A DNA stretch of 64,000 nt, from positions 15,178 through 79,177 of the forward strand of contig CAZHBA010000104.1 of the NCBI GenBank assembly GCA_964530225.1. Direction: 5' to 3'. Position numbers and translations under genes: made by a program. How positions within the stretch are numbered: position 1 is the stretch's first letter; each line of letters opens with the position of its first letter. This DNA is from an uncultured Rhodospirillaceae bacterium (GTDB lineage Bacteria > Pseudomonadota > Alphaproteobacteria > UBA6615). Below are positions 6,394 to 52,876 of the stretch, piece by piece. The notes under the pieces were generated by a model that was given only the letters and a program-made list of their open reading frames with translations, ran no database searches and was not told the origin of the DNA.

Positions 6394-6429
6394 ATGGTGC
6401 CGCCTGTTGGACTCGAACCTACGATCCTG
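6394..6429 (-). repeat. Partial copy of the tRNA-Thr 3' end (T-arm + acceptor 3' strand); imperfect direct repeat of 9957-9992 and candidate att site
   Basis: ATGGTGCCGCCTGTTGGACTCGAACC is 26/26 identical to 9957-9982, extending to 34/36 with 2 mismatches. It lacks the 5' half of a tRNA, so it cannot fold into a cloverleaf. Confidence 0.7.
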
Positions 6430-6879
6430 TTCCTACCAAAAATCACATCCGGACATAGGCATGATGTAATCCGCCGAGTTCCGGCGACGATGGTGTGAAT
6501 GTAAAGATTTTCATTGCCACCAGCCACATGCTGTCGCCGTACTTCACGCTTTCCTGCTCGATCGCCACCCGATCCAACTTATCGGGTGACGCCATTGCAA
6601 TCCATTTGTTGGTCGATTCGACCAAAAGATCGAAAAAACCAAAAAAACAGTCACGTTCTGTGGCCAATCCTTCTGACATGTCAGTTCCCGCCCATTTTAT
6701 AATTCCCGTGAATTATTTTCTTAATGCAGCGGGTCGTTCGCGTTCAGTACCAACTTCGATTTTGATGTCAGGCGCAGCAGCGATGGTTTCTTGGATGTGG
6801 CACCAATTAACGACGCTCCGAGCAATACGTCGCATGTTTTCAGTAATCGCATCGCTTAACGGCCGCGTTACCAGCGGTA

Positions 6880-7680: not shown

Positions 7681-7708
7681 CGATTCTACTCCTTAGTAAA
7701 AATACGAT

Positions 7709-8572
7709 TCATACAACGCCGCACTCACGCAGCTGCGCCACTTCGCTGTTCCCGGTGCCGAATTCGGCAAGCACTTCACCGGTATGCTGACTCAATTCGG
7801 GTAGAGGTCGACTGGCGTTACCGTCGCTTTCGCCAAATCGGAATGGGCTCACTACCAGGGGAACTGAGCCGGCGGCCAGAAACTCGTAATTGCGCACCAT
7901 CTCTCGTTGACGCACCTGTGGATCGTTGAGCGCTTTCGGTATCGTATTAATCGGACCGGCCGGAACACCCGCTTCGATCAAGCCTACCAAACACTCAGAA
8001 CGATTTCTGGTTAGTAAGGAGTGCTCAAGTATCGACTGAGGTACCTCCTGATTCCGTACGCGCGCTCCATTTGTACGAAATCGCTCGTCTGACGACAGAT
8101 AGGGCATCTCAGGCACCTTACACAAGCTTGCGAATTGCTGATCGTTGCCGACTATGAGGATAATATCGCCACCACGGCACGAGTATACTTTCTGTGGTTG
8201 AATGTTCGGGTGCGCGTTACCGGTGCGTCGTGGTGCTTTGCCGGTTAACAGCAAATTCATCGCCTGGTTGGAGAGTAAGCTGACGCCCACGTCGAACATC
8301 GCCATGTCAATATACTTGCCTTTGCCAGTGACTACTCGTGCGGCAAGAGCGGCGACAACGGCTGTGGTCGCGTATATACCAGTGACCAGATCGACAATGG
8401 GTATCCCCACCTTCATCGGACCAGCGCTAGGCTGGTCATCTCGTACGCCCGTCACACTCATGAGCCCGCACATCGCTTGAGTTAGGAAGTCGTAGGCGGG
8501 CTGCAGCGCTCGCGGGCCTACCAGGACACGACTGAGATCAAGAACCCTAATGTGCGAAAGTGGCCCTGCCAT
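7709..8572 (-). CDS. Family III (CaiB/BaiF) CoA-transferase, apparently carrying an in-frame internal deletion of ~100-130 aa (possible pseudogene)
   Basis: From ATG 8572 (MAGPLSHIRVLDLSRVLVGPRA) the family N-terminal motif RVLDLSRVLAGPYA runs directly into LQPAYDFLTQAMCGLMSVTG. That sequence (GYDxxxQAxGGLMSxTG) normally lies ~130 residues further in. The rest of the protein is family-like. The upstream in-frame extension to 8818 has no family resemblance. Confidence 0.5.
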   Translation of the reverse strand: MAGPLSHIRVLDLSRVLVGPRALQPAYDFLTQAMCGLMSVTGVRDDQPSAGPMKVGIPIVDLVTGIYATTAVVAALAARVVTGKGKYIDMAMFDVGVSLLSNQAMNLLLTGKAPRRTGNAHPNIQPQKVYSCRGGDIILIVGNDQQFASLCKVPEMPYLSSDERFRTNGARVRNQEVPQSILEHSLLTRNRSECLVGLIEAGVPAGPINTIPKALNDPQVRQREMVRNYEFLAAGSVPLVVSPFRFGESDGNASRPLPELSQHTGEVLAEFGTGNSEVAQLRECGVV

Positions 8573-8855
8573 TCCCAACGCTCCCTCGGGCTGGATACCA
8601 TCCAGCTTGTTTTTCTTTATCGTCCGGCAGTGGGTGAGAATATGTGCAGCAAACGGATTTGCTCCGTTAAGCGCACAGCAAATAATGTGGTCACACAGCA
8701 TCATGATTCTCACTGTCACATCGCCAAACAGCCTCCGTCGACCGACGGCACGGCGCCCGTCACATAACTCAACAGGTACGAGTACCGCAGAACGACCGAA
8801 CCCGCCGGCGTGAGCCAAACTGTAGCCCCGCTATTCGATCTCGAATCACAAACCT

Positions 8856-9776: not shown

Positions 9777-9957
9777 TGCAGTCTCCAGCCTGAGCGCGTT
9801 AGTGGCTCTATATTATCCTTCGACAATTAGGCATTCTGGATTTCGAGTCGCCAATAAATCACGGTTCAGAGATCATCGGTAAGCCCTTAAAAAGCCGTAC
9901 TTATGTTACCCCAAAAGAAAAAAGAGCCAGCAGGTTTTCGCTAACTCTTTGAAATTA

Positions 9958-10033
9958 TGGTGCCGCCTGTTGGACTCGAACCAACGACCCCCGCATTACG
10001 AATGCGATGCTCTACCAACTGAGCTAAGGCGGC
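9958..10033 (-). tRNA. tRNA-Thr (anticodon CGU)
   Basis: Reverse complement GCCGCCTTAGCTCAGTTGGTAGAGCATCGCATTCGTAATGCGGGGGTCGTTGGTTCGAGTCCAACAGGCGGCACCA folds as a cloverleaf. It has a 7-bp acceptor stem, D-arm GCTC/GAGC, anticodon loop TTCGTAA (anticodon CGT), T-loop TTCGAGT and a 3' CCA. Confidence 0.85.
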
Positions 10034-10100
10034 GCCTAGGCTAGTATGTTCGCCCACTTAGGACCGGACGCGCTGCCGGTCAAGCCTTTTACGTCACCCC

Positions 10101-11155
10101 TTAAGAGGCTTGCGCGAATTGGCCCGCTGCGGCGCCGGCGATTTTGCCGAACACTGCGCCCGAGGTCAGACCGGTGCCGCCGGGATAATTGAAATAGAAG
10201 ATGCCGCCAACCAGCTCCCCGGCCGCATAAAGGCCGGGGATCGGCCGTGAGCCCAGGTCGAGCACGTTAGCCGCGTGGTCGATGCGCAGGCCGCCGAAGG
10301 TGAAGGTGAGCCCACAGATCACCGCGTAGGCCTCAAACGGCGACCCGTCGATGGTATTGGCCCAGTTGGTCTTGTCGACTGCCAGGCCGGTGGTGCCCCG
10401 CCCGTCCTTGACGTTGGGATCGAACGGGACAGCGGTCTGCACCGCCGTGTTGTAGACCTTGATTTCGGCCAGCGCGGCGGCGGTGTCAACACCGTCGAGC
10501 TTAGCGATCAATTCCTCCAACGTGTCGGCGCTCACCTTGGTCACCCGGCGAATGCGGTACTCGTCGCGCAACAGGTGGCTTACCTTGGCGTCGAAAATTT
10601 TCCAGGCGAACTGTCCCGGTTGCTCGAGGATCACCTTTCCGTATTTAGCGTAGGTGTAGTTGCGAAAGTCGGCCCCCTCGTCGACGAAGCGCCGGCCGGT
10701 GGAGTTGACCATGATGCCCCAGGGATAGGAGTGCTTCTGGAAATTATCGCCGACCGTGAGGTCGCCGAACTCGGGCGCATTGCGGTCCCAACCAACGGCG
10801 TGGCGCCCGACCAGTTGCCGTAGGGCTGGGCGCCGATATCGAGCGCCATGCGGATGCCGTCGCCCATGTTGAAGCGCGAGCCGCGCACCTTGGCGAGGTC
10901 CCAGCCAGGACCAAGATAGCGCGTGCGCCACTCAGTGTTGGCTTCGAAACCGCTGCTAGCTAGCACCACCGCCTTGGCACCGATGGTGATGGTGCTATCC
11001 AGTTGGCGCACGTGGCCGCCGTGCACCCCGGCGGCGTCGTGGACCAGGGAAACCGCACGGCTGTCGTAGAGTATGTCGATACCGCACGTCCGCGCCGACG
11101 CGATCAGGGCGTCGACTACAGGACATAAGGACTTGAAGATGTTGAAACGATACAC
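10101..11155 (-). pseudogene. FAD-dependent oxidoreductase (TcuA / fumarate-reductase-flavoprotein-like) remnant, frameshifted and 5'-truncated
   Basis: Two overlapping minus ORFs (10631-11155 and 10101-10931) carry consecutive parts of one flavoprotein (…ASSGFEANTEWRTRYLGPGWD…QPYGNWSG | HAVGWDRNAPEFGDLTVGDNFQKHSYPWGIMVN…GLYAAGE). They are joined by a -1 frameshift near 10805-10815. The N-terminal FAD-binding GxGxxG region is missing. The ORF stops being protein-like exactly at the AT-rich boundary at ~11156. Confidence 0.6.
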
Positions 11156-11409
11156 CTATCTCAAGGCTGAAGATCTGGCTCTTAAACTGGGGTGATAATA
11201 ATATACACCACTATCATTACTGATGAGTTTTTAGCATTTAATTAAACACCCGCTAGAATAGCCTGTATGGACTCAGGAGACTCATATCTGATGGGTATGG
11301 TGTGGGTTATGGTGTGTCCTGTTTGAGCCTCAGTGACTCCGTATGGGTCTCTATGACCCCTTTAGCTATGGTATTAACAATCGCCATGAAATGTGTCAGA
11401 CTTTTTGTT

Positions 11410-11784
11410 ATGAAAAAACTGACCACCACACTCTGCCTGACTGTTGCCCTGCTATTTGGATGTACGGGGGTGTGTATGAGCGCCGATCCAGCAAAAGGTT
11501 TGCTTGATTTAAAGTCTAGTTTGGTTGCTTATTCTTGTGATGATTATAAGGGTCCCATACCCCAAAATGCCAATCCCAACAATCGGGGCCCCTATTATTT
11601 TGAAATTGATTTTGATCAAAAAAAGGTCAGTGAAAAATCCGTATTAGATGGTTATTGGAGCCATTGGTATCAAGCCGCTATTACCAACGAAAAAATCGTC
11701 TGGTCTAATCACCACAAATGTAAAATTGCTTTCGATAAAGAAAATGAAGAAATAGAAATTACGTTTCCCGATAAGGTCGACTAA
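11410..11784 (+). CDS. Hypothetical lipoprotein (orphan, in AT-rich insert)
   Basis: ATG 11410 gives MKKLTTTLCLTVALLFGCTG, a signal peptide with lipobox-like LFGC. 124 aa in a region of ~40% GC. No family recognised. Confidence 0.45.
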   Translation: MKKLTTTLCLTVALLFGCTGVCMSADPAKGLLDLKSSLVAYSCDDYKGPIPQNANPNNRGPYYFEIDFDQKKVSEKSVLDGYWSHWYQAAITNEKIVWSNHHKCKIAFDKENEEIEITFPDKVD

Positions 11785-12642
11785 GGAATTTGGTCAGGAT
11801 GCTACAAGGTTGAGCCTCGAAAAAACTCCAAATGATTTGGGTCCATCAACCTCAGTTAGTAAGGACGATTCTTTTAATGAAGCAAAGATGACGACCTCTG
11901 ATGAGATCATCATCATTGGGTCTCCATACATAAAATATAAATAGAGAAGCGTGATATATCATTATACGACTGTTTTTTTAGGACGATAGACCCACAGTTC
12001 TAGCTGAGTAACTCCAGAAGCTATTATTACATTATTTATGCAGGGTGTATTTCTTTGGGTGGTCTTCCTTTCTTGCTCCAATTTTGCGCCAATGAAACCC
12101 GGATGGGACCCATAATAATTTTGTAGGATTCACATAAGTTCTTATTAATGCTACAATATTTTTCAGGATTAAAAGCTTGAGATGTCTACCCCCGCATTAC
12201 GCGTGTATTTACCGTTGACATCCTCCAGCTAATCGTAGGTTCGCCAAAAGTTGTTGGCCAAAAAGCGGGCATTGTTGGTGCAACCAGCACCATCAGGCTC
12301 GGCGCAAAGGCGGGCTCCACCAGCAACAGGTCCGCGGCCATCACCGTCGTTCGTGGTGACTGAAATCGAGGCCGTTGACTTCGTCGCCGGCATCGATATC
12401 GATGGCGATACCAGCATCGTCTAAAACCAGTTTTGTCAGTTTTGTTTCAGGGTCGCGCACCATCTCCGCAACGGGCGAATAGGCTGACGGGAAAAATAGC
12501 CGGTTTTTGTCGTGCAGGGTTGATTCGGCCATGTGCGAACAACGCTGTTGTAGCGGCGCGCCGATGGCGAGCCTTTCGGTGCCGCTCATTCAATACCCAT
12601 ATAATTAATGTAAGGTTAAAATGGACCGGAATGGCCTAGAAT

Positions 12643-25243: not shown

Positions 25244-25936
25244 ATGGCTGATTTGCCGGTTCTACGCATCGCTCCATCGATTCTGGCCGCCGATTTTGCG
25301 AAGCTCGGCGAAGAAATTCGCGCTGTCGAGGCGGCCGGCGCGGACTGGATTCATATCGATGTGATGGACGGCCACTTCGTACCTAATCTCACCATTGGGC
25401 CAGCGGTAGTAAAGGCGCTAAGGCCGCACACCAGTCTGCCGTTCGACGTTCATCTGATGATCGCACCCGCCGATCCGCTGATCGAAGCGTTTGCCGACGC
25501 TGGCGCCGACACCATCTCGGTGCATCCCGAATCCGGACCTCACCTGCACCGCACCCTGCAAACCATCCGCAGCCTCGGCAAACGTGCCGGCGTGGTGCTG
25601 AATCCGGCAACGCCAGTCGACGAGATCGACCATGTTATGGATATGATCGACCTTATTCTGATGATGACCGTCAACCCCGGCTTCGGCGGCCAGAAGTTTC
25701 TCACCAGCCAGTTGGATAAGATCAAGACCTTACGCCAGAGCATCGATAAGCACGTTACCGGCGGCGGCGCTTCGATCGATCTGGAAGTGGATGGTGGGAT
25801 CGACACCAACACCATACCGCTGGCGGCAGGTGCCGGCGCAGATGTATTCGTCGCCGGCACGGCAACCTTTCGCGGCGGACCCAGCGCCTACGCCGATAAT
25901 ATAAGCGCCCTGCGCAGTGCCGCCGAGGTCAATTAA
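25244..25936 (+). CDS. rpe: Ribulose-phosphate 3-epimerase
   Basis: [17 protein letters not shown]…[14 protein letters not shown]…GGI, 230 aa. TAATG overlap with the next gene. Confidence 0.9.
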
Positions 25937-27597
25937 TGAGCGCGGCCCTGCTATACGACTGGCACTACAATGTCAGCAAGCTGCTCTACGCGACCCCAGT
26001 TTACCGTTACACCCTGTTAAGCCGGGTACCGCGCGATTTGATCCTGGTGCCGCCCGATGCCTGGCCGGGTAGTGCCGATGCTGGCGCAGCAATCGTCAGC
26101 GGCGAATTCAGTTTCTTCGGCGAAACCGTACGCGGCGACCTGCGGGCTTGGCGGCCGGGCGGCATGAGCGATGCCTGGTTGGCCGAACTACATGGCTTCG
26201 ACTGGCTGCGCGATCTTCGCACACTTGGCGGTGACGGCGCCCGGCGGCAGGCGCGCGAGTTGGTTGGCGATTGGCTGGTTCGACAATCGAACTGGCATGA
26301 GATCGCCTGGCGCCCCGATGTGCTGGGCAACCGCTTGTTTGCCTGGCTCGGCCAGCACGATTTCTTTTGCGCCTCCGCCGATGATGATTACCGCCGGGAT
26401 TATCTGGCGAGCCTGACGCGTCAAGCCAAACACCTATCGCGGGTGCTGCCGCGCGGCGCTCACGGCGCCAGACTCATCCTCGCCACAAAGGGCTTGATCA
26501 CCGCCGGTTTGTCGCTGCCCGGACACAATAACTGGATCAGCCAAGGGCTAAAATTGCTGGAACGCGCCTGCGCTCAGCAGATTCTCGCCGATGGCGGTCA
26601 CATTTCGCGCAGCCCAGCGGTGCAAACCCAAGTTCTACGTCATCTGGTTGATATCCGCAGCGCATTACTCGCCACGCAAAAGGAAGTGCCCGCTTTTTTA
26701 ATGGTGGCGATCGACCGCGCCGTACCGTTTTTACGCATGCTCCGCCACAACGATGGCGGACTTGCCTTGTTCAACGGCAGCAACGAGGGACGCGGCCGGT
26801 TGATCGATATGCTACTGGCGCAGGCCGACTCCCGTGGCCGCCCACTTACCTCGGCGCCCCATTCGGGGTTTGAACGTATCGTCGCCAACCGCACCATCAT
26901 TTTAATGGATACCGGCGGGCCGGCAGCTGGAGCGGCGGACACCGACACCCACGCCGGCACTCTGTCGATGGAAATTTCAATCGGGCGCGAACGGATAATC
27001 GTCAACTGCGGCACCCGTTCCGGTGCACGTGAGCCCTGGTCACAAGTTCAACGGTCGACCGCCGCCCACTCGACGATGATTGTCGACGATACCAATTCGT
27101 CCGCTTTACTGGCAGCCGGCAAGATTGGCCGGCGGCCCGGCGATGTTGCAGTCGACCGCAACGACGAGAACGGCAACGTCTGGATAACCACGAGCCACGA
27201 CGGCTACGGCCCCTTGTACGGCATCACCCATCAGAGACGGCTCTATGTGGATACCAGCGGCAACGATATTCGTGGCGAAGATTCGATGGTGCAGGAAAGC
27301 GAGGGCAAACACCCGTCGCGCGGCTATGCCCTGCGGTTCCATCTGCCCCCCAGCGTGCAAGCTTCGCTGGTGCAAAACGGCAGCGCGGTACTATTGCGGC
27401 CGCCGAGCGGCGTGGGCTGGCAGCTGAGGGCCGATGGCGGCACTGTTTCACTCGCTGAAAGCGTCTATTTAGGCGGCAATGACGAGATCAGACGCAGCGA
27501 ACAGGTCGTCGTTTCGGGCATCTTCGACCCGCCGGATGCTAACGGCACCATCGCCTGCGTTAAATGGGCGCTAAAAAAGGTGCCCAAGAAGGGTTAG
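25936..27597 (+). CDS. Heparinase II/III-like family protein
   Basis: 553 aa, alpha/alpha-toroid plus beta-sandwich type sequence. The position immediately downstream of rpe is conserved for this family in many alphaproteobacteria. Family assignment is from overall resemblance only. Confidence 0.5.
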   Translation: MSAALLYDWHYNVSKLLYATPVYRYTLLSRVPRDLILVPPDAWPGSADAGAAIVSGEFSFFGETVRGDLRAWRPGGMSDAWLAELHGFDWLRDLRTLGGDGARRQARELVGDWLVRQSNWHEIAWRPDVLGNRLFAWLGQHDFFCASADDDYRRDYLASLTRQAKHLSRVLPRGAHGARLILATKGLITAGLSLPGHNNWISQGLKLLERACAQQILADGGHISRSPAVQTQVLRHLVDIRSALLATQKEVPAFLMVAIDRAVPFLRMLRHNDGGLALFNGSNEGRGRLIDMLLAQADSRGRPLTSAPHSGFERIVANRTIILMDTGGPAAGAADTDTHAGTLSMEISIGRERIIVNCGTRSGAREPWSQVQRSTAAHSTMIVDDTNSSALLAAGKIGRRPGDVAVDRNDENGNVWITTSHDGYGPLYGITHQRRLYVDTSGNDIRGEDSMVQESEGKHPSRGYALRFHLPPSVQASLVQNGSAVLLRPPSGVGWQLRADGGTVSLAESVYLGGNDEIRRSEQVVVSGIFDPPDANGTIACVKWALKKVPKKG

Positions 27598-28971: not shown

Positions 28972-29328
28972 TACCTCAACTCGTTTTCAGTACGGCTCTT
29001 AACCGAGGAAGGGTTGCAAGAAAACCACATATGCGCGTATACGCGATAAAATTTGGTGCCGCCATCGACGAGTCGCACGTAAACAGATATTTCACCTGTG
29101 GCAGGGCACATAGCGATCTTTGTAATTGTCAACTAATGCAAGACGACCGGACCCTATGAACCGTCTCGATCGACTGGAAGCCCTCAGTGTCAACATACCG
29201 TGCAAAGCCTATAAACAGGCCCGGCCATTGGCCATGCTATGGTCGAACGGCATGGACTCCAATCTTCCGCCGATGACGCGTGCGGCTACAAGTAAGAACG
29301 CCGGGCTGCGCTCTTCGGGTTATAGGTC

Positions 29329-31125
29329 ATGAACAAAGCCACTAAACCAGCCGCTTCCGCATCAGATCAGCCGGCGGCGACAGAGCAGTTGCGCGTCGTC
29401 ATCGTCGGTCATGGCAAGTCGACCCTGGTTGGGCGCTTGCTCCACGACACCAACATGCTACCCAAAGGTAAGCTCGAAGCTATCGAGGAGATTGAGTTTC
29501 GCCACGCCGAGCGCGAATACGTTTTAATCGACGCGCCGAGCCACCGTGAAATTATCCGTAATATGGTGACCGGCACTTCCAGCGCCGATGCAGTGCTGCT
29601 GCTAATCGATGCCAACCAGGGGACGCGTGGCCAATTGTCCCGCCATGGCTATCTGCTGCAGTTGCTCGGATTCCACCAGGTCGCAGTCATGGTCAACAAG
29701 ATGGACCTAATCGGTTATAGCGAAGCGCGTTTCCGGGAAATTGAGCGCGAATACAGCAGTCACCTCGAAGGCATCGGCGTTACGCCGACCTGCGTTATCC
29801 CAATTTCAGCGCGCAACGGCGACAATGTCGCAACGGCTTCGAAAAATTTAGGCTGGCAGAATGGGTCCACGGTCCTCGATGCGCTGGCCGAGTTTACCCC
29901 GCCGGAGAGCCACGAAGATGCACCGCTACGCTTGCCGCTTCAGGCCGTCGACAAATCCGACGACCGCTGGGTTTTTGTCGGCCGCATCAAAAGCGGTCGG
30001 CTCAGCGTCGGTGACGAACTGTTGTTTTCACCCAATAACCTCACCGCTAAAGTCGCTAGTATCGAAGTTCGGAGCACCAAAGAACCCGTCGCCCAGGCAA
30101 ATGCTGGCTTATCGGTTGGCTTCACTCTGGACGAACAAATATTCGTCGAGCGCGGTGAGATCGCTAGCCATGTCGAGAATCCGCCCATTGAAACCGATGT
30201 ATTTCACGTGCGGTTATATTGGCTGTCTGAGCACGCACTGGCAGCCGGCGATACGGTTACCCTCAAGATCGGTCCCACGTCGGTGCGTGCGACGATCGAT
30301 CAGATCGAACAAGTCATCAACGTCGATGCGCTAACCGACCGGACGGCCGACAAGGTGGTGCGTGACGAGATTGCCGACGTTGTCGTACGCACCGCGCACC
30401 TTGTCGCTATCGACCCCCATCAAACCTTACTGCGCACCAGCTGTGTCGTGTTCACCGACAAGCACAAAACCTTGGGTGGCGGCGTTGTCTCGATGGGCCA
30501 TTACCCAGACCAGCGGAAACTGGTCACGGTGCGCGCAACCAATGTCGTCGCCGAGGCCCATCGGGTAACGACGCCACAACGTATCGATCGTAATCGTCAC
30601 GAGCCTGGCGTTTTGTGGTTCACCGGGCTGTCCGGGTCTGGCAAATCAACCTTGGCGATGACGCTGGAACAACGCCTGTTCGACCAAGGTTATCAGGTCT
30701 ACGTACTCGACGGCGACAATGTGCGCGGCGGCCTCAACGCCAACCTTGGGTTTTCACCTGAAGACCGGGCCGAGAACATTCGCCGGGTCAGTGAGGTGGC
30801 GGCCCTGTTGACCGACGCCGGCGTCATCGTCATTACCGCCTTTATCTCGCCCTACCTCGCCGACCGCGAACGCGCGCGCGCTGTCGCAGGTGATAATTTC
30901 CACGAAATTTATATTGAGGCCGACCTGGAAACTTGTGAGGCGCGCGACCCCAAGGGTCTGTATAAACGCGCGCGCAACGGTGAAATCGGCGAATTCACAG
31001 GTATTTCTGCTCCCTACGAGACGCCCAGTCATCCCAACCTAGTGATCAACACGGCAATAAACGATATCAATACCTGTATCAATCAGCTGGAGGCCTATAT
31101 CACTAAAAATTTCCAGCGGGGTTAA
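29329..31125 (+). CDS. CysN-like (degenerate GTPase) / CysC adenylylsulfate-kinase fusion protein
   Basis: C-terminal APS kinase with P-loop GLSGSGKSTLA and …ITAFISPY…. N-terminal EF-Tu/CysN-like domain with NKMD and SAR motifs. Its P-loop is shortened (VGHGKST), switch I is deleted (~35 aa missing vs CysN) and DxxG is replaced by DAPSH. No cysD partner in the window. Confidence 0.7.
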   Translation: MNKATKPAASASDQPAATEQLRVVIVGHGKSTLVGRLLHDTNMLPKGKLEAIEEIEFRHAEREYVLIDAPSHREIIRNMVTGTSSADAVLLLIDANQGTRGQLSRHGYLLQLLGFHQVAVMVNKMDLIGYSEARFREIEREYSSHLEGIGVTPTCVIPISARNGDNVATASKNLGWQNGSTVLDALAEFTPPESHEDAPLRLPLQAVDKSDDRWVFVGRIKSGRLSVGDELLFSPNNLTAKVASIEVRSTKEPVAQANAGLSVGFTLDEQIFVERGEIASHVENPPIETDVFHVRLYWLSEHALAAGDTVTLKIGPTSVRATIDQIEQVINVDALTDRTADKVVRDEIADVVVRTAHLVAIDPHQTLLRTSCVVFTDKHKTLGGGVVSMGHYPDQRKLVTVRATNVVAEAHRVTTPQRIDRNRHEPGVLWFTGLSGSGKSTLAMTLEQRLFDQGYQVYVLDGDNVRGGLNANLGFSPEDRAENIRRVSEVAALLTDAGVIVITAFISPYLADRERARAVAGDNFHEIYIEADLETCEARDPKGLYKRARNGEIGEFTGISAPYETPSHPNLVINTAINDINTCINQLEAYITKNFQRG

Positions 31126-34020: not shown

Positions 34021-35161
34021 AGATATCGGCTAGGATTGCAGCGTGCCGGTGGGCATCGTAACGCTGGTGAGTGGCTGTCCTACCAGCTTCCGCAAGCTTC
34101 GTGCGGAGTTCCCGGTCACCGAGCAGCATCGACAACTGGTCGGCAAAATCACCGGCATCGTCCGGCCCAGCCAGAAGACCAGTTTTCCTGTGCGCGACGA
34201 TATCGTGATGGCCGCCATCATCGGCCGCGATAACCGCGGTGGACAGCAGCATCGCCTCAATTACCGTGCGGCCCAACCCTTCACCGACGCCCGGCGCCAC
34301 CAAAACATCGAAGCCGGCCATATAAGGCAGGATTGGAAAACACGGACCCGGCAGGTGCACCCGGCCTGCCAAATTTTCTCGCTGCAGTTCGGCTTGGCGC
34401 TCAATCGTCAAAAAGCCCCGCGTGTCACCAATCATTACGAAATGGCAATTGTTACCGGCTCTTTGCGTGTGCAATGCGGCAATTTTCAAAAACAGCTCGG
34501 GACGCTTCTGCGCCTCCATATTGCCAACAAAGCCGACAATCGCCGCGTCCGGCGGAATAGAGAGTTCTTGTACCAGGCGGTGGCGGTGCCCAGCCCTGAC
34601 GTCGTTCGACATCTCGGGCAGGTCGAATGGTTCATCAACCACGCGCGCCCGCGCCGCCATCGCCGCGGGCAAACCGCTGCGGCAAAATTCCGAAATCGTG
34701 AGTACACGGGCGGGAAACCAGCTGTACAATCCCAGCCGTCGCGACGGGTTTATTGTGCGCTGGTGCCAAACATGGGCGCAACCGGCGCGCCGGGCCGCCA
34801 GCGTCCAGGTCATATGCATGCGCGCATCATTGGTGTGAATAAAGCGCCAAGAGCGGTTCCGCAGCATCGGCGCCAAGCGAACGGACGCCCGCTGCATGAA
34901 GTACAATTCAATAGGCAGCGGGCCGCCGATAACAACATCATCTGGCGGAAGTGTTTCGAAAGGCGTGCCACGACTCTCGAGATGCGCCGCCAGCAGGCCA
35001 TCGGTCTGGTGCAACCCGACGACCGGTTGAATACCTAAGGCGGGCAGGGCGTCGATTAGCGTCAAGGCCGAGACATGACTACCGCCAAGGCTGTCACCGA
35101 CGAATGGGAACAAAACACTGCCTATGGTGGCTTCCGCCTCCGGCATGTAGCGACCGTTCAT
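33989..35161 (-). CDS. Glycosyltransferase family 4
   Basis: C-terminal …PGVGEGLGRTVIEAMLLSTAVIAADDGG… GT4 signature and N-terminal GGSHVSAL. 390 aa. ATGA overlap with the upstream gene. Confidence 0.75.
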   Translation of the reverse strand: MNGRYMPEAEATIGSVLFPFVGDSLGGSHVSALTLIDALPALGIQPVVGLHQTDGLLAAHLESRGTPFETLPPDDVVIGGPLPIELYFMQRASVRLAPMLRNRSWRFIHTNDARMHMTWTLAARRAGCAHVWHQRTINPSRRLGLYSWFPARVLTISEFCRSGLPAAMAARARVVDEPFDLPEMSNDVRAGHRHRLVQELSIPPDAAIVGFVGNMEAQKRPELFLKIAALHTQRAGNNCHFVMIGDTRGFLTIERQAELQRENLAGRVHLPGPCFPILPYMAGFDVLVAPGVGEGLGRTVIEAMLLSTAVIAADDGGHHDIVAHRKTGLLAGPDDAGDFADQLSMLLGDRELRTKLAEAGRTATHQRYDAHRHAAILADIYGELASDIRH

Positions 35162-36252
35162 GCCCGGGCCGCTTCCGCCGAACGGCTAGTGACGACGGCC
35201 TGTAATTGCTCGATAAACAATGGCGCTGCGTCAGAGCTTATCAGGTGGCAAGCGTATCGCGCCTGGCCCTCTGTGGCGATCTGTAGCCAGTTCGGATAGT
35301 CGGCCAAGATCGCATCCAGTCTCTCCTCGAAATCACTCAGGTCCCAGCGATGAGCGACGTATGTCTGGCCATCGACAAACAAATTTGGCCACGTCTCGAT
35401 GCCGGACATATCGGGCTTGAATAAAAGCCCGCCAGTGAGAAAAACTTCAAAGTCCTTGAGGGTGATTTCGCCCCACCCGAAGGGCGAGACGATAACCTTA
35501 CTACGGCGCAACTCAGCGAGGTAACGCCGACGTGACAGTTTGCCGGTCGGCATGCGCGCTGCCATTCGCTCTCTTATGAGCCATCGCTGCGCCGCCACCG
35601 AGGCACGGGAATAGGTGGTGCCAAAGCGGCAGGAAATAGGTTGTTGGCGGGAATCGGAAGGAGGCGTGAAGCGGGTTGGTGCGCGCAGCAAGGGCGCCAG
35701 CGGTAGGCGGTTATAAAGCGCCATACGGTAGGGCCCGAATGCGGAATAGTTGGCGAGCCCAGAGTGCCAGGAGATTCGTAATTTGCCCAGAAGCGCCGCC
35801 TTCGGTACCGGTCGCGACCAGGCCGGCTCGAAATCCACGATGCCCAGAGTGCGGTGATAGTAGTCGGCGAAGGCGCGGTAAGCGTATTGTGGCTTTAAAT
35901 ATGCGCTGCGATCGCGCATCAACTGGCCCTTGGCGTAGATGTCCACGATGGGTAGGAGCTTGCTAATGAGCCATCCTGCGGAATCGGAAGTGTCGCAAAA
36001 CACCGTAGTCGTCCGCTGCGACCATTCCGCAAAATCCGCCAAGATTTCCGCTTCTTGGGACGGCCACAGCGGCTCATGAAATTTGCGGTCGACCAACAGG
36101 CAATCGCAATCGGTAAGTGCGGGTGCGGCCGTATCGAACAGCCGAATGCAGATTCCCGCCTGCGCCAGCGCACGGCGGTGCACGATCAGAGGGAACAGGA
36201 AGGCCCGTCCGTTCGGTGTCGTGAAGCCTGGTGTTAGGATATGAAGCAGCAT
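35158..36252 (-). CDS. Glycosyltransferase-like protein (CgeB / Glyco_trans_1_2-like C-terminal domain)
   Basis: C-terminal …RRSKVIVSPFGWGEITLKDFEVFLTGGLLFKP… resembles the GT1-like domain found in CgeB/YkvP-type proteins. 364 aa. Confidence 0.5.
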   Translation of the reverse strand: MLLHILTPGFTTPNGRAFLFPLIVHRRALAQAGICIRLFDTAAPALTDCDCLLVDRKFHEPLWPSQEAEILADFAEWSQRTTTVFCDTSDSAGWLISKLLPIVDIYAKGQLMRDRSAYLKPQYAYRAFADYYHRTLGIVDFEPAWSRPVPKAALLGKLRISWHSGLANYSAFGPYRMALYNRLPLAPLLRAPTRFTPPSDSRQQPISCRFGTTYSRASVAAQRWLIRERMAARMPTGKLSRRRYLAELRRSKVIVSPFGWGEITLKDFEVFLTGGLLFKPDMSGIETWPNLFVDGQTYVAHRWDLSDFEERLDAILADYPNWLQIATEGQARYACHLISSDAAPLFIEQLQAVVTSRSAEAARA

Positions 36253-40033: not shown

Positions 40034-41917
40034 TTAGCCCGGCTCGGTCGCCGCAACCCTTGGGCTTTCCTTTATGAGATTACTAATCAGGGCGGTCAGC
40101 GACCAACGGTGTGCATCTCCAAACACTGGAGCAAGGGCCGTTTCACGTTGCGCTTGGCGGCTCGCCCAGTCCGCCAAGATGGCTTCCCTAGGGCGCGATA
40201 GCCAAGTGCGCAGAGCGGCAAAATGATCCGGATCGGTCTGATCAAAATAACTGGCGCACTCACGAAAAACAGGTACCAAGTCGGATCTGAGGCGCAAATT
40301 TGCGCAAGGGGGATCTAGATAAGCAAAGGGTCTACCGCTCCAGTAGACCCAGCTCAAGGTGCTCGTTGCTCCAAGCGTAACCACCGCGAAGTAATCGGAC
40401 AACAAGAACCGCATGTCCCAGCCCATGGTGTCAATCGTTACATTCGGCAAAGACCGGCAGGCCGTCATGGCGGGATCTTCGTCCAAATAAGCCGACTCAG
40501 GATAGGGCTTGAACACGACCGGGTGCGGTAGCGCTTGAAAAACGTCCCGACACAAGCGCACCTCCGTAAGAGAGGCTTGCCGATCGTCGCGATAGCCTGC
40601 ACCTGAAAATATTCCTCCTACTCGGGTATGGCATTGCGGATAAAGGATCGCCCGAGCGCTATGCAGCAAGCTTCGACGTTCACAGGTTCGGCGGAGGTTG
40701 CGAAACGCGCGCGGCAGTCCAGCATGGATTGCGTGGCCGTCGGGGCGGCGAAAAGGCGAAGCGTTAGACAGCTCGGTTCCACGCTGTGTCAGGCACAGCA
40801 AAACAGGCGTGGTTGCGTTTTCATAGTTTACCTCGTTCTGCGGCTTCTCAACCAGTTCGCGTGTGATGGCATGCTGCACACCAACCAGCGGAATTTCCCG
40901 CTCTTGCAAGGTGTCGGCCAGAGCCAAAAAGGCCGCATCCTTTGGGTAGTTCGTCGTTACCAGTACCGGCCGGCGACCCCATCCCGCCAATTGGGGGGAA
41001 TGCAATAACTCACGGGTTTCCCGGTATAATCGCAGCTGATCGTCTATCAGGCGTAAAAGTTCGGCGCGCAAAGGTGCTAGCGCGAAGGCCGGAACGATTT
41101 CACCCAAGGCCTCACCATATCTGCTCCACACCTTAGCCATGATCGGTTCCGACAGAAGTTCGGTTTCATCTCCAGCGGGAAAGTCTGTAAATCTTGGAAG
41201 TTTGAGGCTCCGAGCCTTGTAAAGACGGAAGGCCAGCGCAACACCGATATCGTTCCCCAACTCCGTCCCATTGATGTTGATGTAGTCACCTCTGAAAAGC
41301 CAGTCTGGCAGACGATCGCCGACAATCTCATACAGGCGGCGCGCAAAATGCCCCACTCCCCGAACCTGCAGACGTTTTAGAAGCGGCTCGGTCTGCGAGC
41401 GTAAAGTCATATGTTCCGGGAGCTGCACCGGAATTTTCATGTGGACGGCCTGCGGATTATCTGCCATCAGCATCATCCAGGGATAACCGATGAAGGCCGC
41501 TAATCGGTCCGCTTCCAACGCGACATCGAGGATTAAACGCGGCTCTTCCCCGTCGCAGTCCTGCAAGAAAGCCGCGCACAGTGCCCGCCTCTGGAAGATC
41601 CAGATGGTTTGCAACGCAATCCGGGCGAACGGCGCCATTGCGCGGTCCGCCTCCAGCATCGCCAAACATGCGGACAGCGTTTCACTTGTGGAGGCGCTAA
41701 ATTTTTCCAAGTCCTCCGGTGTGGCCTTACCTCTCGTATCTAAATAGGAAACGGCGGAATTATCGCTAGCAAGCAATGCGGGAGAGCGGGTAAGGACCGT
41801 CACGTCCTTTGGCAACCCCAGACCGTAGGCTTTCTCCAAGGCCGCTTTGCTTGAACAAAAGACAGCCCCTGTCTTGTCCGAGCATAACCTGGCGAAGGAA
41901 TCGGTCGCTGTGGTCAA
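40034..41917 (-). CDS. Large hypothetical protein with TagF / capsule-synthesis (KpsC/KpsS-like) GT-B-type C-terminal region
   Basis: 627 aa. The C-terminal region (…PHPVVFKPYPESAYL…NVTIDT…DMRFLLSDYFAVVTLGATSTLSWVYWSGRPFAYLDPP) resembles the KPHP / SS…F…P part of the CDP-glycerol glycerophosphotransferase and Capsule_synth families. Assignment is tentative. Confidence 0.4.
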   Translation of the reverse strand: MTTATDSFARLCSDKTGAVFCSSKAALEKAYGLGLPKDVTVLTRSPALLASDNSAVSYLDTRGKATPEDLEKFSASTSETLSACLAMLEADRAMAPFARIALQTIWIFQRRALCAAFLQDCDGEEPRLILDVALEADRLAAFIGYPWMMLMADNPQAVHMKIPVQLPEHMTLRSQTEPLLKRLQVRGVGHFARRLYEIVGDRLPDWLFRGDYININGTELGNDIGVALAFRLYKARSLKLPRFTDFPAGDETELLSEPIMAKVWSRYGEALGEIVPAFALAPLRAELLRLIDDQLRLYRETRELLHSPQLAGWGRRPVLVTTNYPKDAAFLALADTLQEREIPLVGVQHAITRELVEKPQNEVNYENATTPVLLCLTQRGTELSNASPFRRPDGHAIHAGLPRAFRNLRRTCERRSLLHSARAILYPQCHTRVGGIFSGAGYRDDRQASLTEVRLCRDVFQALPHPVVFKPYPESAYLDEDPAMTACRSLPNVTIDTMGWDMRFLLSDYFAVVTLGATSTLSWVYWSGRPFAYLDPPCANLRLRSDLVPVFRECASYFDQTDPDHFAALRTWLSRPREAILADWASRQAQRETALAPVFGDAHRWSLTALISNLIKESPRVAATEPG

Positions 41918-44833: not shown

Positions 44834-46912
44834 TTATGGCCGAACCTGGAATACCGGGCTGACCAGTTTGCAGTTTAGCCGTTCGCGCAGCGTTCCCGTC
44901 CGCATCGCATCTTTGAGTTCAGGAAGGACGCGCGCATAGGCCGCTTCGATCAGTGCAAGCGCCCCGGCGTCATGGGCATAGCTCATATTGTGACTAGCCG
45001 TCAGAAGTACGCCAAGGTTCATCATCTCTTTCAGGAAAAAAGTCTTGATCTCAGCGGCGCTGAAGCCGTCCTGCCCGGTAAACGAAACTAAGACCCAAGG
45101 ATCGATGCCGTTTAGCTGGATTACCTCTTGTAAATTGTTGTCGCGCACCAGGATATTCACACGATTACGCAGTTTAGCGCCTTGGCTCCACAGATGCTCA
45201 ATCACCGGCTCGTCGCGCATCTTTTTCAAAGTTGCCAACCCCGCCGCCAAAGACAAAGTCTCACCGCCAAACGTCGCCGAAAGAAACACCTCGCGCGCTT
45301 CGGCCATGACATCAGCACGCCCAGCGAGGCAGGACAAAGGATGCCCATTAGCCATGCCCTTGCCGAGGACCGTTAGATCCGGCTGGACGCCGTAATAGGT
45401 TTGCGCGCCGCCTAACGCGGTCCGAAATCCGGTGATCGTTTCGTCGAACACCAAAAGACACCCGTGCTTATCGGCTAGTTGGCGCAAATCAGTAAGGTAG
45501 CGATTTCCGGTGTCATAGTCCGGAACCACCGGCTCCAGCATGACGCACGCCACTTTGCCATCTAGCGTCTTTAGGATGTCCTCGATTTCGCAAAGATCGC
45601 CGGAGGCGACCATGTGGGTCAACTCATGGCTTTGCGGAGGAACGCCACGATTGCGCACCGTCGTTCCAATGTACCAGTCCTGCCAACCGTGATAGCCGGT
45701 GACCAGGACATGATCGCCGCCGGTAAAGGCGCGCGCCACGCGCACCGCCCCCGAGGTTGCGTCCGTGCCGTTTTTTCCAAACCTGACACTCTGCGCCGAG
45801 GGGACGAGCTCGGCGATAAGCTCGGCCAATTCGCACTCCAGTTCGCTAGCCAAACTCAGACTAACGCCAGCCTTCATCTGCTGACGCACCGCCGCGTCAA
45901 CATCCGAATCGCAATAGCCGAGGCTAACGGCAAGGAGCGACATCATCAGATCGACATATTCGTTCCCGTCGATGTCCCAGGCCCGGCACCCCATGCCATG
46001 CGACAGAAACAGCGGCGAACGCCCTTCCGGCAGCACCAGGCGTGACTTACTAAAAGTCTGGCTGGCCAGCGGCACTCTTTGGTCGACCTTGCCTATCGCC
46101 ATGTTCGAGCGATCATAGTTACGTTGTGTTTTAGCCCGAGCCTCCAAATCCTCCAGCAAGGCGGCTGGTATTGCATTTCGCGTCCGACCGATTTTATGCG
46201 TTACACCGGCATCGGACAGCCGGTCCTCTTGCGCGGCCACTTCGAGAAAACTCGGCACGTGGTCGGCTAGGAAACATTCAGCAAGCCGGTCGAGAAACTC
46301 GAGATCCTCTGGCGTATCCAGGGTCCAATGTCTGCCGGCGAGCCCCGGCAAGGGACATTCCAGCGTGCGAATTGAAAAGCGGCTTCGGTTCGCCCGTATC
46401 CACCGGGTCACATGTTCGCGGTGCGACGGCAGATCTGCCTCCGTATCTGCCTGGCGCAAAGTTTCGACCCAGAACGCCTCCACATCCAGCCCATCGGGCC
46501 ACGTCCAAGGAGACGTGTTACAGGCATAATCACAGCCCGCGTTAATCAACAACCAGGCGACCTGATCGATCACGGCCGGATCGAGAAAGGGACAGTCGGC
46601 GGTTAGACGGACAATGACATCGGCGTCCTGTGCCTCCGCCGCACCCAACATCCGATGAAGCACGTCGCTCTCCGAACCGCGATAGCAAGAAATCCCAGCC
46701 TGCTCGCACCAATCGGTGATTGCCCTATCACCATCCTGGATCGACGTCGCAACAACCACATCATCACACAGCCGAGATCTTCGCGCTGCCTGGACCACCC
46801 TTGCCAGCACAGGCTGGCCGCTGATCGGCCGAAGCGCTTTTCCCGGCAGCCGACTAGAGCCCATACGGGCCTGAATTACCGCAATCGTTCGATTTCTCGG
46901 CTGCTGGCTCAT
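44834..46912 (-). CDS. Bifunctional protein: N-terminal SpsF/NeuA-like cytidylyltransferase fused to a class-III (GSA-aminomutase-like) PLP aminotransferase
   Basis: N-terminus IAVIQARMGSSRLPGKAL…VVVATS…VIVRLTADCPF (CTP_transf_3). C-terminal half has an aminotransferase class-III pattern (…GTDATSGAVRVARAFTG…LVFDETITGFR…TVLGKGMANGHPLSCL…, Lys in GKGMA). ATG 46912 chosen: ATGA overlap with the upstream Gfo/Idh/MocA gene, while the ORF-track start 46924 is TTG. Confidence 0.65.
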   Translation of the reverse strand: MSQQPRNRTIAVIQARMGSSRLPGKALRPISGQPVLARVVQAARRSRLCDDVVVATSIQDGDRAITDWCEQAGISCYRGSESDVLHRMLGAAEAQDADVIVRLTADCPFLDPAVIDQVAWLLINAGCDYACNTSPWTWPDGLDVEAFWVETLRQADTEADLPSHREHVTRWIRANRSRFSIRTLECPLPGLAGRHWTLDTPEDLEFLDRLAECFLADHVPSFLEVAAQEDRLSDAGVTHKIGRTRNAIPAALLEDLEARAKTQRNYDRSNMAIGKVDQRVPLASQTFSKSRLVLPEGRSPLFLSHGMGCRAWDIDGNEYVDLMMSLLAVSLGYCDSDVDAAVRQQMKAGVSLSLASELECELAELIAELVPSAQSVRFGKNGTDATSGAVRVARAFTGGDHVLVTGYHGWQDWYIGTTVRNRGVPPQSHELTHMVASGDLCEIEDILKTLDGKVACVMLEPVVPDYDTGNRYLTDLRQLADKHGCLLVFDETITGFRTALGGAQTYYGVQPDLTVLGKGMANGHPLSCLAGRADVMAEAREVFLSATFGGETLSLAAGLATLKKMRDEPVIEHLWSQGAKLRNRVNILVRDNNLQEVIQLNGIDPWVLVSFTGQDGFSAAEIKTFFLKEMMNLGVLLTASHNMSYAHDAGALALIEAAYARVLPELKDAMRTGTLRERLNCKLVSPVFQVRP

Positions 46913-47895
46913 CCACTCACCCAAAACCCGCTCAGCGCACGCGCATCTGTAGCCTGGCGCAGCGCGTTGAGGGCTTCCCTGCCGTCACAGGGTGGATTAT
47001 CGCCACCCCGAACGGCGTCGACGAACTGCGTCAGCACGGCCTGGTATTCCTTGTTCGGTTCGAAGGCGTAGCGAGTCTCGGACTGCGGACTTCCAGTCGC
47101 ATCGAAACGCTGGAGATATCCTTGCCGTAGATCCGCAACGATAGCCCCAACCTCGCCAGACACCTCCAGGTATCGACGGCGAACGCGCGACCCAAAATCC
47201 AGATGCAGCGATGAAATACACCCGGCCGCATGCTGTAGAATAACTTCCGCCATGTCTTCTGTTTGAAGCTCCATCACGCCAGTCTTACGCAACACCGCGG
47301 ACACGGCCTCGGCGGGCCCAAGCAAATGGTTGGCAAGATCAATCTCGTGAATCACATCGAGAACCACACCTCCGCCGACGACGTCGTTGGCGTATCCTGT
47401 CCGGTAGTCGCGATCCGCACGCCAATCCGGGAGCCAAGATGCGCTGACAAAACGCGCCCAACGGGGTGGTCCGAGTGCTGCTATCTCGGCGGGCAGCGCC
47501 GCGACAATTTCGCGTTGGCGCAAATTGAAGACGCCGCCAACCTGTAAATGTTGTTTGGTGGCCTGATCCAGAAGGGCCCCCACCGCACCGGGGTCGTGGC
47601 CAATGGGTTTCTCGACCAAGGTCGGAACATCGGCCGACAGACTCAAAGCGAGATCGGCCTGATGCTGGCCGGTGGGTGAAGCCACCAGCGCGATGTCGGC
47701 ATTCTCCAACGCGTCCTGCGCCGTGTTAGCCAATGCCAAGCCCAGACCAGCGGCCTGCTCTCGCGCTACATCGCCCGGGTCATAGCCGACAACAGAAAGA
47801 TCCAGAGCATTAGCGTTTTTGGCATGACGCGACCCTATCGAACCCAAGCCGAGAATGGCGATGCGTTCGACCTTTCTCGGCGGAAACTCGCTCAC
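46909..47895 (-). CDS. Gfo/Idh/MocA-family NAD(P)-dependent oxidoreductase
   Basis: N-terminal Rossmann IAILGLGSIGSRHAKN and …LVEKPIG… motif. 328 aa. Confidence 0.7.
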   Translation of the reverse strand: MSEFPPRKVERIAILGLGSIGSRHAKNANALDLSVVGYDPGDVAREQAAGLGLALANTAQDALENADIALVASPTGQHQADLALSLSADVPTLVEKPIGHDPGAVGALLDQATKQHLQVGGVFNLRQREIVAALPAEIAALGPPRWARFVSASWLPDWRADRDYRTGYANDVVGGGVVLDVIHEIDLANHLLGPAEAVSAVLRKTGVMELQTEDMAEVILQHAAGCISSLHLDFGSRVRRRYLEVSGEVGAIVADLRQGYLQRFDATGSPQSETRYAFEPNKEYQAVLTQFVDAVRGGDNPPCDGREALNALRQATDARALSGFWVSG

Positions 47896-51688: not shown

Positions 51689-52876
51689 TCAAACATCACT
51701 GAGTGGCGTATCCTGGAAAAATTTTTGACGTGGCAAATCCCACATCTTGGATTGGGAAAGAATGTCTGTAAACCGCCGGCCGGAATCACCGTCACCAAAT
51801 TCGATGGCGGCGTCGACGCGGTCAGGCAGGGACTGGATGGCCACAAGAATTTCTTCCTTTTTTGCCTCTACGTGAGCAATTGAAGGGCAGAAACTACGAT
51901 TTCTCTGTCGGGTTCCTATGTTGATGCTGGGTACACCAAACACCGGAGCTTCGCGGACACCAGAACTGGAATTTCCAATAATGAAGCGTGCATTTTTCAT
52001 CAGGGTGAGAAAATATTTGAAACGGATAGAGGGATAAAGAACGACATTATCTTTTGCCGCAAATCGCTCGAGTGTTTCAACGAGGGTTTCTGCACCGATA
52101 TCATTGTTAGGCCGTATGGCAATAACATTGCCGCCATGTTCGTCTAGTGCCGATAGGACCTCCTCGAACTGCTGCCCAATATTTCCGGTCTCGGTCGTAA
52201 CCGGATGGAACAACAGAATAGAATAATTCGTGAAGGACAAATCGTAGTGTTGTTGAACCTCCGAAAGCGAGGGCAGGTTTTCACTTTTCATCAGATCGAC
52301 TTCGGGAGAACCAATCACGAAAATGGTTTGTTCTGCTTCACCCAGCTGCAAAATTCTCGTCCGGGAATCCCGATTGGCTACAAAATGAATGTGGGAAAAT
52401 TTGGTCACCGCATGTCGAATTGACTCGTCGATGGTTCCGGAGACTTCGCCACCTTCGATATGCGCCACCCGCGTATTATTCATAGCGCCGGCAATAGCTC
52501 CCGCCAGGGTTTCGACCCGGTCTCCATGAACTACAAGCATGTCCGGTTTCCGCTCATTCAGGTAATGGCTCATGGGGACAATGGTGTTGGCCAGAACGAC
52601 ATCCATTTTTGACGACGTCGATGATTCCTGATTGAAAATCGGGAAGACCACCTTGTGCCCCGATTTATGAATTTCATTTATAGTATAACCGTGGCTCTCC
52701 AGCATGTGCATACCGGTGGCGATAATCTCGATTTCAAAGCTTTCAGTCGCCTCAAGGCTCTCAATCAAGGTTTGCATCTTGCCGTAGTCGGCACGGGTTC
52801 CCGTAAGGAACGCCACTCTCTTTACACGGTCTGGCTGCTCACTAGTCACTGACACAATTCCAGGATAATTGTTCAT
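51689..52876 (-). CDS. neuC: UDP-N-acetylglucosamine 2-epimerase (hydrolysing), NeuC/LegG family (start uncertain: ATG 52942/52876 or GTG 52816)
   Basis: …VAFLTGTRADYGKM…, …VHGDRVETLAGAIAGAMNNTRVAHIEGGEVSG… and …HPVTTE…, the hallmark NeuC (epimerase_2, hydrolysing) motifs. Confidence 0.75.
   Translation of the reverse strand: MNNYPGIVSVTSEQPDRVKRVAFLTGTRADYGKMQTLIESLEATESFEIEIIATGMHMLESHGYTINEIHKSGHKVVFPIFNQESSTSSKMDVVLANTIVPMSHYLNERKPDMLVVHGDRVETLAGAIAGAMNNTRVAHIEGGEVSGTIDESIRHAVTKFSHIHFVANRDSRTRILQLGEAEQTIFVIGSPEVDLMKSENLPSLSEVQQHYDLSFTNYSILLFHPVTTETGNIGQQFEEVLSALDEHGGNVIAIRPNNDIGAETLVETLERFAAKDNVVLYPSIRFKYFLTLMKNARFIIGNSSSGVREAPVFGVPSINIGTRQRNRSFCPSIAHVEAKKEEILVAIQSLPDRVDAAIEFGDGDSGRRFTDILSQSKMWDLPRQKFFQDTPLSDV

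Follow-up and report, generated by a model that had tools for sequence, protein, structure and literature searches.

A CysN-CysC fusion with a decayed GTPase half and a conserved APS kinase in an alphaproteobacterial surface-glycan locus

Introduction

What does a sulfate-activation fusion protein still do after one of its halves has decayed? The question is raised by the gene cysNC in a 64,000-nucleotide stretch of DNA from an uncultured Rhodospirillaceae bacterium (assembly GCA_964530225.1, contig CAZHBA010000104.1, positions 15,178 to 79,177 of the forward strand), which is referred to here as the window. A sequence-only reading of the window had described the gene as a CysN-CysC fusion with damaged GTPase motifs, an intact adenosine 5'-phosphosulfate (APS) kinase half and no CysD partner. 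The same reading proposed that the protein makes 3'-phosphoadenosine 5'-phosphosulfate (PAPS) for a sulfotransferase of the same glycan locus. The comparison with homologues reported here finds the GTPase half damaged and evolving as if neutral, the kinase half complete and conserved, and a relic of cysD directly upstream. The window probably holds a PAPS-making module that has been reduced to its kinase. The coordinates of all features are collected in Table 1.

Table 1. Features of the window that are discussed in the text
Feature	Coordinates	Strand	Basis or remark
Conserved upstream motif GGGTTGCAAGAAAACCACATATGCGCGTATACGCGA, 36 bp	29011..29046	+	conservation across loci
cysD remnant micro-ORF, 58 codons	29156..29332	+	DNA alignment and protein alignment A4
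cysNC-derived gene, decayed CysN (GTPase and domains II-III) fused to intact APS kinase (CysC)	29329..31125	+	598 aa
GTPase-domain remnant (aa 1-195)	29329..29913	+	alignment vs intact homologues
CysN domains II-III (aa 196-395), full length	29914..30513	+	10 substitutions at columns at least 97% conserved
Linker and APS-kinase (CysC) domain (aa 396-598)	30514..31125	+	Pfam, NCBIfam, alignment
Sulfotransferase, presumed PAPS consumer, 303 aa	50747..51658	-	Pfam Sulfotransfer_3
neuC-like UDP-GlcNAc 2-epimerase	51689-52942	-	Pfam Epimerase_2, 254 bits
neuB-like nonulosonic-acid synthase	52842-53987	-	Pfam NeuB, 244 bits

Results

Lesions are found in the CysN half

The cysNC open reading frame (ORF) is real and encodes a CysN-CysC (NodQ-type) fusion, as had been read from the letters. 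Pfam placed GTP_EFTU on residues 26-191 (86 bits), a weak GTP_EFTU_D2, GTP-eEF1A_C, and APS_kinase on residues 427-574 (218.3 bits). Every CysN or CysNC model of NCBIfam scored below its cut-off (TIGR02034 for CysN, 265.1 vs 336.1; NF004035 for CysNC, 515.8 vs 715; NF003478, 247.7 vs 590), and the match came in two stretches with about 40 profile positions skipped. Structure matches were found to Pseudomonas syringae CysN (1ZUN chain B, 1zun_B) over residues 57-378, starting with query residue 57 on chain residue 99, and to 4bzp over residues 428-573. A search of 5.8 billion proteins returned one cluster of the same length, 97% identical (P0001); the next best proteins are 633-635 aa long and 72-74% identical. 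The identical gene is carried by a Joint Genome Institute (JGI) metagenome contig (L003). An NCBI metagenome contig (L001, GCA_002998485.1) carries at 6945-8741 a gene with 97% protein identity, all four of the deletions described below and point differences of its own.

The lesions were examined in an alignment with close homologues (A1) and in a wider set of 120 homologues, 116 of which are intact. The alignment showed the G1, G2 and G3 motifs to be damaged much as the sequence-only reading had described. The P-loop, GHVDHGKS in relatives, has been shortened by three residues to GHGKS through a 9-bp deletion; the resulting GHGKST lies at nucleotides 29407-29424, and the three-residue gap occurs only in the window and P0001. 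Switch I had been reported missing, and 32 residues are in fact gone from the alignment, corresponding to a 96-bp deletion with its junction at 29490/29491. The lost segment, MCRRRGMPFEWAFLMDSLKAERDQGxTIDTSQ, holds helix A'/switch I and the G2 threonine (GxTID); when an intact relative was aligned with archaeal EF-1alpha, the segment fell on helix A'/switch I and took in the threonine of GITID. The claim of DAPSH in place of DTPGH stood as to the lesion but not as to its baseline. G3 does read DAPSH, at 29530-29544 (G71S), and the column is glycine in all 116 intact homologues, but the normal form of the clade is DAPGH, as in EF-1alpha. G4 (NKMD, residues 123-126, nucleotides 29695-29706) and G5 (SAR, residues 160-162) are kept, and both are invariant in A1.

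The damage was counted at conserved columns, defined as those at least 97% identical in the 116 intact homologues. Among the 89 conserved columns of the GTPase part, 24 are deleted and 7 substituted, compared to a mean of 0.56 substituted in the intact homologues. Domains II-III have lost none of their 60 conserved columns, and 10 are substituted (intact homologues: mean 0.41, maximum 3). From these lesions we infer that the protein would have lost both its GTPase activity and its part in ATP-sulfurylase activity.

The APS-kinase half is complete

The kinase half had been called intact, and it proved complete. It passes the curated cut-offs (PF01583, 218.3 vs 21.1; TIGR00455, 241.6 vs 138.7; NF003013, 258.1 vs 163). 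The P-loop GLSGSGKST (residues 433-441, nucleotides 30625-30651), LDGDN (460-464) and FISPY (505-509) are present and invariant in A1, as are the lid residues C536 and K542. A P-loop, LDGD, and a lid with a cysteine and a lysine make up the feature list of Mycobacterium tuberculosis CysC (PMC4373884). At the 90 conserved columns of the kinase there are no deletions and three substitutions, G488S, R510L and A519V (intact homologues: mean 0.28). When the human PAPSS1 kinase domain was aligned, it had alanine and threonine at the positions equivalent to G488S and R510L, and none of the three changed columns is known to be catalytic. The CysC half would be expected to convert APS to PAPS still.

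A relic of cysD lies upstream of cysNC

The absence of cysD that had been noted around the gene holds for an intact copy only. The 64 kb contain no intact cysD and no sat, and Pfam found no PAPS_reduct, ATP-sulfurylase, cysH or cysQ domain in the roughly 54 ORFs of the window, which also has no sulfate permease. A relic of 58 codons is nevertheless left directly upstream of cysNC, in a 357-bp gap where relatives have an intact cysD. What remains corresponds to CysD residues 1-36, to an internal stretch of 15 aa (LPPMTRAATSKNAGL) and to the C-terminal 7 aa. The rest was removed by two in-frame deletions of 177 and 444 bp, the first of which starts within the PP-loop, so that SIGKDS becomes SNG at the junction. 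The original ATG is kept, and the stop overlaps the start of cysNC (ATGA). To all appearances, cysD is functionally gone from the window.

Related loci carry the intact pair, and one has decayed in parallel

Two relatives, L002 and L005 (the latter on a closed 4.33-Mb chromosome), share the upstream gene order of the window: GcrA, RsmB, Rpe, a heparinase-II/III-like gene and a UDP-sugar dehydrogenase (minus strand). An intact cysD-cysNC pair lies between the same neighbours (RsmB, Rpe, heparinase-II/III-like, UDP-sugar dehydrogenase) in L002, L005 and L086. In L002 and L005 the stop of an intact cysD (PAPS_reduct) overlaps the start of an intact cysNC. The relatives with the intact pair at this site have 71-74% protein identity, the closest of them 74%. 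Among species-representative genomes, G1, G2 and G3 were complete in 22 of the 22 recovered cysD-bearing loci whose cysNC is at least 69% identical to P0004; therefore, loss of cysD and decay of the GTPase go together. The arrangement in the window is best read as what recent decay, specific to this lineage, has left of an intact ancestral pair of cysD and cysNC, and not as a designed architecture.

A second decayed locus was found in L004 (ERZ26166120 contig_6, 9792-11824), where the neighbours are those of the window and the cysNC product (P0019) has 607 aa. Here cysD is down to 69 codons after a single 585-bp in-frame deletion, and a 90-bp in-frame deletion in cysNC has removed the switch-I threonine; G3 reads DAPGD and the P-loop is intact. 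None of the 90 conserved kinase columns is changed in P0019. The locus is flanked by insertion sequence (IS) transposases. Since its deletion borders differ from those of the window, the loss in L004 is an independent, parallel event.

Other homologues also show changes. In L086 (ERZ24794600 k141_160908, 5701-7611), cysD is intact and cysN has TGA for TGG at the tryptophan of IWF just after switch I, which splits it into ORFs of 91 aa and 536 aa (the latter is P0076); this is either a third strike on the GTPase half or a sequencing error. P0092 (569 aa) was considered as a further decayed homologue and rejected, its motifs being intact and only its start different. Three metagenome-assembled genomes of Vulcanimicrobiota (L033, L034 and L036) carry, downstream of cysD, a cysNC that aligns over the full length, with a C-terminal domain lacking the canonical GLSGxGKS P-loop in a simple pattern test. 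These may be the reverse case, a dead kinase-like domain, or an artefact of the strict pattern.

The conserved motif upstream of the relic contains a perfect 12-bp palindrome, CGCGTATACGCG (29034-29045). In the DNA alignment, a conserved copy of the motif precedes cysD, or what is left of it, in the window, L001, L002, L004 and L005. An exact-pattern search found it in L002, L003, L004 and L007, and in a single copy in the window. The upstream region gave no Rfam match and no match to the sigma-70 consensus, and the sigma-70/terminator scan was empty. The motif may be a candidate promoter/operator of the (former) cysD-cysNC operon.

Deletions are in frame, and the kinase is under selection

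All six deletions are multiples of three: those of the window measure 9, 96, 177 and 444 bp, and those of L004 measure 585 and 90 bp. By our own arithmetic, the chance of six in-frame deletions is (1/3)^6, or about 0.0014, and the three in cysD alone give a p of about 0.04. Within cysN, deletions in frame are to be expected if the kinase downstream must still be translated. The in-frame deletions in cysD, together with the kept start and overlapping stop, suggest that cysNC is translationally coupled to the relic. Slippage is suggested by the short direct repeats (CATG...CATG, AGAT...AGAT) found at several of the deletion junctions.

Selection was assessed for each part of cysNC from Nei-Gojobori counts between the window and L001. 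Because both already shared all the deletions, the differences between them postdate the deletions. The GTPase part has 11 nonsynonymous and 3 synonymous changes, with a ratio of nonsynonymous to synonymous rates (omega) of about 1.15, which is indistinguishable from neutral. Domains II-III have 6 and 8 (omega 0.24; binomial p vs neutrality 0.009), and the kinase has 0 and 16 (omega 0). The contrast between GTPase and kinase is strong (Fisher p = 6.7e-6), and seven neighbouring genes have an omega of 0.07-0.40. With 16 silent changes and no replacements, the kinase is the part under selection. A relative-rate test against outgroups was not used as evidence since the window lineage may branch outside the "sister" set. 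In that test the excess of the window lineage was +0.065 for the GTPase part, +0.080 for domains II-III and +0.038 for CysC, and the acceleration of P0019 was limited to CysN.

The locus encodes a sulfotransferase next to nonulosonic-acid genes

The sulfotransferase named in the sequence-only reading was recovered by a profile search (PF13469 Sulfotransfer_3, 44.0 bits vs a cut-off of 27, E 4e-11); NCBIfam gave no match to it. PAPS-binding proteins of this kind have a 5'-phosphosulfate-binding (5'-PSB) loop, xRxGTT, and a 3'-phosphate-binding (3'-PB) motif, RxPxxxxxS. The protein has GAMRTGTT (residues 21-28) as its 5'-PSB loop and RQPESVVAS (155-163) as its 3'-PB motif, and R24, G26, T27, T28, R155, P157 and S163 are invariant across its homologue clusters (n = 4; alignment A3). 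The family is very small, with four other clusters at 38-45% identity. In the sister population the ORF is intact, and the two copies differ by 4 nonsynonymous and 5 synonymous changes (omega 0.23).

The neuB-like and neuC-like genes immediately precede the sulfotransferase and share its strand. The order CTP-transferase, NeuB, NeuC, sulfotransferase recurs in an unrelated contig, L091 (7045-10906), and hints at a nonulosonic-acid-linked sulfation module. The wider locus, at about 27.7-61.9 kb, encodes two NeuB paralogues, PseB- and PseC-like enzymes, cytidylyltransferases, GT4 glycosyltransferases, two FkbM methyltransferases, an ATP-binding cassette (ABC) exporter and a NusG-like regulator.

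Several neighbours in the locus were also recorded. Four large ORFs on the minus strand (40034-41917, 54669-56033, 56848-58341 and 35158-36252) match no Pfam family at E <= 1e-4, and L091 has similar unannotated ORFs of 464 aa and 458 aa between two cytidylyltransferases. The four ORFs may be nonulosonic-acid transferases or polymerases. At 44834-46924 (minus strand), a 696-aa fusion of a cytidylyltransferase (CTP_transf_3) and a class-III aminotransferase adjoins a PIG-L deacetylase, a second NeuB and an ATP-grasp enzyme, a neighbourhood that suggests a second, modified nonulosonic-acid pathway. A heparinase II/III-like protein of 553 aa is encoded at 25936-27597 (plus strand), between rpe and the glycan locus, and its position is conserved in L001, L002, L004 and L005.

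Discussion

We consider it likely that the window carries a NodPQ-like PAPS module that was reduced to its kinase, is fed APS from elsewhere and serves the sulfotransferase of the locus. The ancestor would have been a module of the NodPQ/CysD-CysNC type that supplied PAPS within a surface-glycan locus with many nonulosonic-acid genes. Its ATP-sulfurylase function would then have been lost in this lineage, as cysD shrank to a relic and the CysN GTPase was left without part of its P-loop, switch I and the G3 glycine. Only in-frame deletions would have been tolerated, with the kinase translated in the same reading frame as CysN and cysNC probably coupled to the relic. The C-terminal kinase would still be made and functional, converting to PAPS the APS of another ATP sulfurylase in the genome, and the locus sulfotransferase would most likely use that PAPS on a nonulosonic-acid-containing glycan. 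A sulfated glycan with nonulosonic acid is the natural prediction, although both the glycan and the link from kinase to sulfotransferase are deduced from gene content.

Because the locus has no working ATP sulfurylase, the kinase depends on APS made by an enzyme that another part of the genome encodes. Sinorhizobium has one CysN plus two NodQ (PMC1780047), and redundancy like this would let one copy decay.

Several points weigh against the reduced module. Kinase and sulfotransferase lie on opposite strands with 20 kb between them and are paired by locus only. The relative L002 has a different, non-orthologous sulfotransferase, and locus content varies among the relatives. The selection test uses few substitutions from a single sequence pair, and a metagenome scan for the junction of the 96-bp deletion (wobble-degenerate codons) returned only the contig of L001 and thus no further sequences for the test. 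Silent divergence between the window and L001:6945-8741 is also uneven within cysNC, at 3/140 sites in the GTPase part vs 16/151 in the kinase (Fisher p 0.004), which may come from recombination within the gene or from mutation or selection acting unequally on silent sites. The ORFs of the window include none for an alternative ATP sulfurylase, and look-ups of its edge proteins beyond the window gave only shorter contigs of other assemblies with no new sulfur genes. A scan of species-representative genomes with the CysD of a relative found a single locus per genome; it used near-exact peptide patterns, which a divergent housekeeping cysD could escape.

If the genome had no other source of APS, the kinase would have no substrate, and the case would gain for the whole sulfation module being a dying relic, in which no APS is made and the kinase and sulfotransferase merely lack visible damage so far. 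The single cysD locus recovered per related genome and the lack of another ATP sulfurylase in the 64 kb fit such a relic, as do the rarity of the allele in metagenomes and the state of L004, where IS elements surround the locus and no sulfotransferase is encoded within 10 kb. We find this explanation unlikely, however, because the changes after the deletions (16 silent and 0 replacement in the kinase vs 3 and 11 in the GTPase part) require ongoing purifying selection on the kinase. The unchanged kinase columns of P0019, the six in-frame deletions, which argue that downstream translation mattered, and the intact sulfotransferase ORF with its low omega also speak against it.

Another explanation is that the decayed CysN, with domains II-III and the core of the G domain, is a pseudo-GTPase scaffold for folding or oligomerisation of the kinase or for docking of a partner. 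The omega of domains II-III is like that of functional neighbours and below neutrality, NKMD and SAR are kept, and two independent lineages retained CysN at near-full length instead of trimming it to a stand-alone cysC. Against a scaffold stand the 10 substitutions at conserved columns of domains II-III, far above the maximum of 3 in intact proteins, and the small counts behind the omega (14 changes). Passive retention is expected in any case, because the gene has its sole promoter and start codon ahead of CysN, and a translated N-terminal region that is selected not to misfold would also show a lowered omega even if it had gained no new function. A scaffold is, in our judgement, improbable. 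The same grade applies to the idea that the selected domains II-III and the translated cysD relic, which two lineages independently kept with its start and overlapping stop, form a minimal expression/scaffold unit for a stand-alone kinase using APS from a source other than CysDN (for example Sat-type or AprAB). If this doubtful idea were true, with APS coming from Sat or from AprAB in organosulfur/sulfite oxidation, it would tie the surface-glycan sulfation of a marine heterotroph to another branch of sulfur metabolism. Finally, the window derives from an environmental assembly, but the lesions are almost certainly no assembly or sequencing artefacts, since the four deletions recur in the independent assemblies L003 (identical) and L001 (with its own differences), keep the reading frame in every case and come with many point substitutions.

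The reduced module can be compared to known systems. In Sinorhizobium meliloti, also an alphaproteobacterium, the CysD-like subunit NodP and the CysN-CysC fusion NodQ provide PAPS for Nod-factor sulfation (PMC1780047). NodQ has the same fusion architecture (EF-1alpha-like GTPase, domains II-III, APS kinase), and nodPQ, like cysNC in the window, lies in a specialised glycoconjugate locus with a sulfotransferase and not in a cysteine regulon. The intact NodP/NodQ-type arrangement is exactly that of L002 and L005. The window differs in its partner gene, of which 58 codons remain as a relic, and in its GTPase, from which G1 has been lost in part and G2 and the G3 glycine entirely; only the kinase third is conserved. 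The CysD-CysNC proteins of M. tuberculosis and P. syringae (1ZUN; CysC domain 4BZP) are homologous over the whole length, and the M. tuberculosis kinase features are all present in the window; unlike 1ZUN, the window protein lacks the switch-I equivalent, matches only from after the deletion and has no functional CysD.

Sulfate-activation genes have been described in capsule or lipooligosaccharide (LOS) loci of other bacteria, both marine and pathogenic. In the capsular polysaccharide (CPS) cluster of Cobetia marina, a dedicated cysD/cysNC set accompanies genes for glycosyltransferases, a sulfotransferase and an ABC exporter (PMC11766843); in cluster VI of Campylobacter jejuni HS:19, a dedicated set of this kind lies next to sialylation genes (PMC8743553). 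Those clusters hold complete cysD, cysN and cysC, often with cysQ and a sulfate permease, whereas the window keeps only the kinase and has neither cysQ nor a permease. A full ATP sulfurylase, APS kinase and sulfotransferase do occur together in one glycan locus in L002 (cysD, cysNC and Sulfotransfer_3); in the window, this set is down to an intact kinase and an intact sulfotransferase.

Sulfate-activation enzymes with one dead domain include the fungal ATP sulfurylase with its APS-kinase-like allosteric domain and the ATP sulfurylase-APS kinase (ATPS-APSK) fusion of Thiobacillus denitrificans (PDB 3CR8). As in the window, one half of these proteins is inactive and the other works. However, their dead half is kinase-like, ancient and regulatory or structural, whereas in the window it is a GTPase, and its decay is recent and neutral. 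The literature searched contained no account of a CysNC that combines a dead GTPase with a relic cysD and a live kinase, but its coverage was incomplete and the negative is no proof of absence.

The cysNC gene of the window shows with unusual clarity how one domain of a fusion can die and leave the other alive, and it does not represent a new kind of system. Pseudogenisation is domain-specific within one ORF, with constraint ranging from neutral in the GTPase to absolute in the kinase, and the same functions were removed in two lineages by in-frame deletions only. The JGI annotation names the protein "bifunctional CysN/CysC", a label from which sulfate activation would be wrongly ascribed to the organism when only the step from APS to PAPS is expected. 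The protein should not be scored as an ATP sulfurylase when the metabolism of this marine alphaproteobacterial group is reconstructed.

Many alphaproteobacteria assimilate sulfate through APS reductase and need PAPS only for sulfation. The pattern of loss suggests that ATP sulfurylase is redundant in these genomes and APS kinase is not, which fits assimilation through APS with PAPS reserved for sulfation. The conserved NeuB/NeuC/sulfotransferase module points to a sulfated surface glycan that contains nonulosonic acid.

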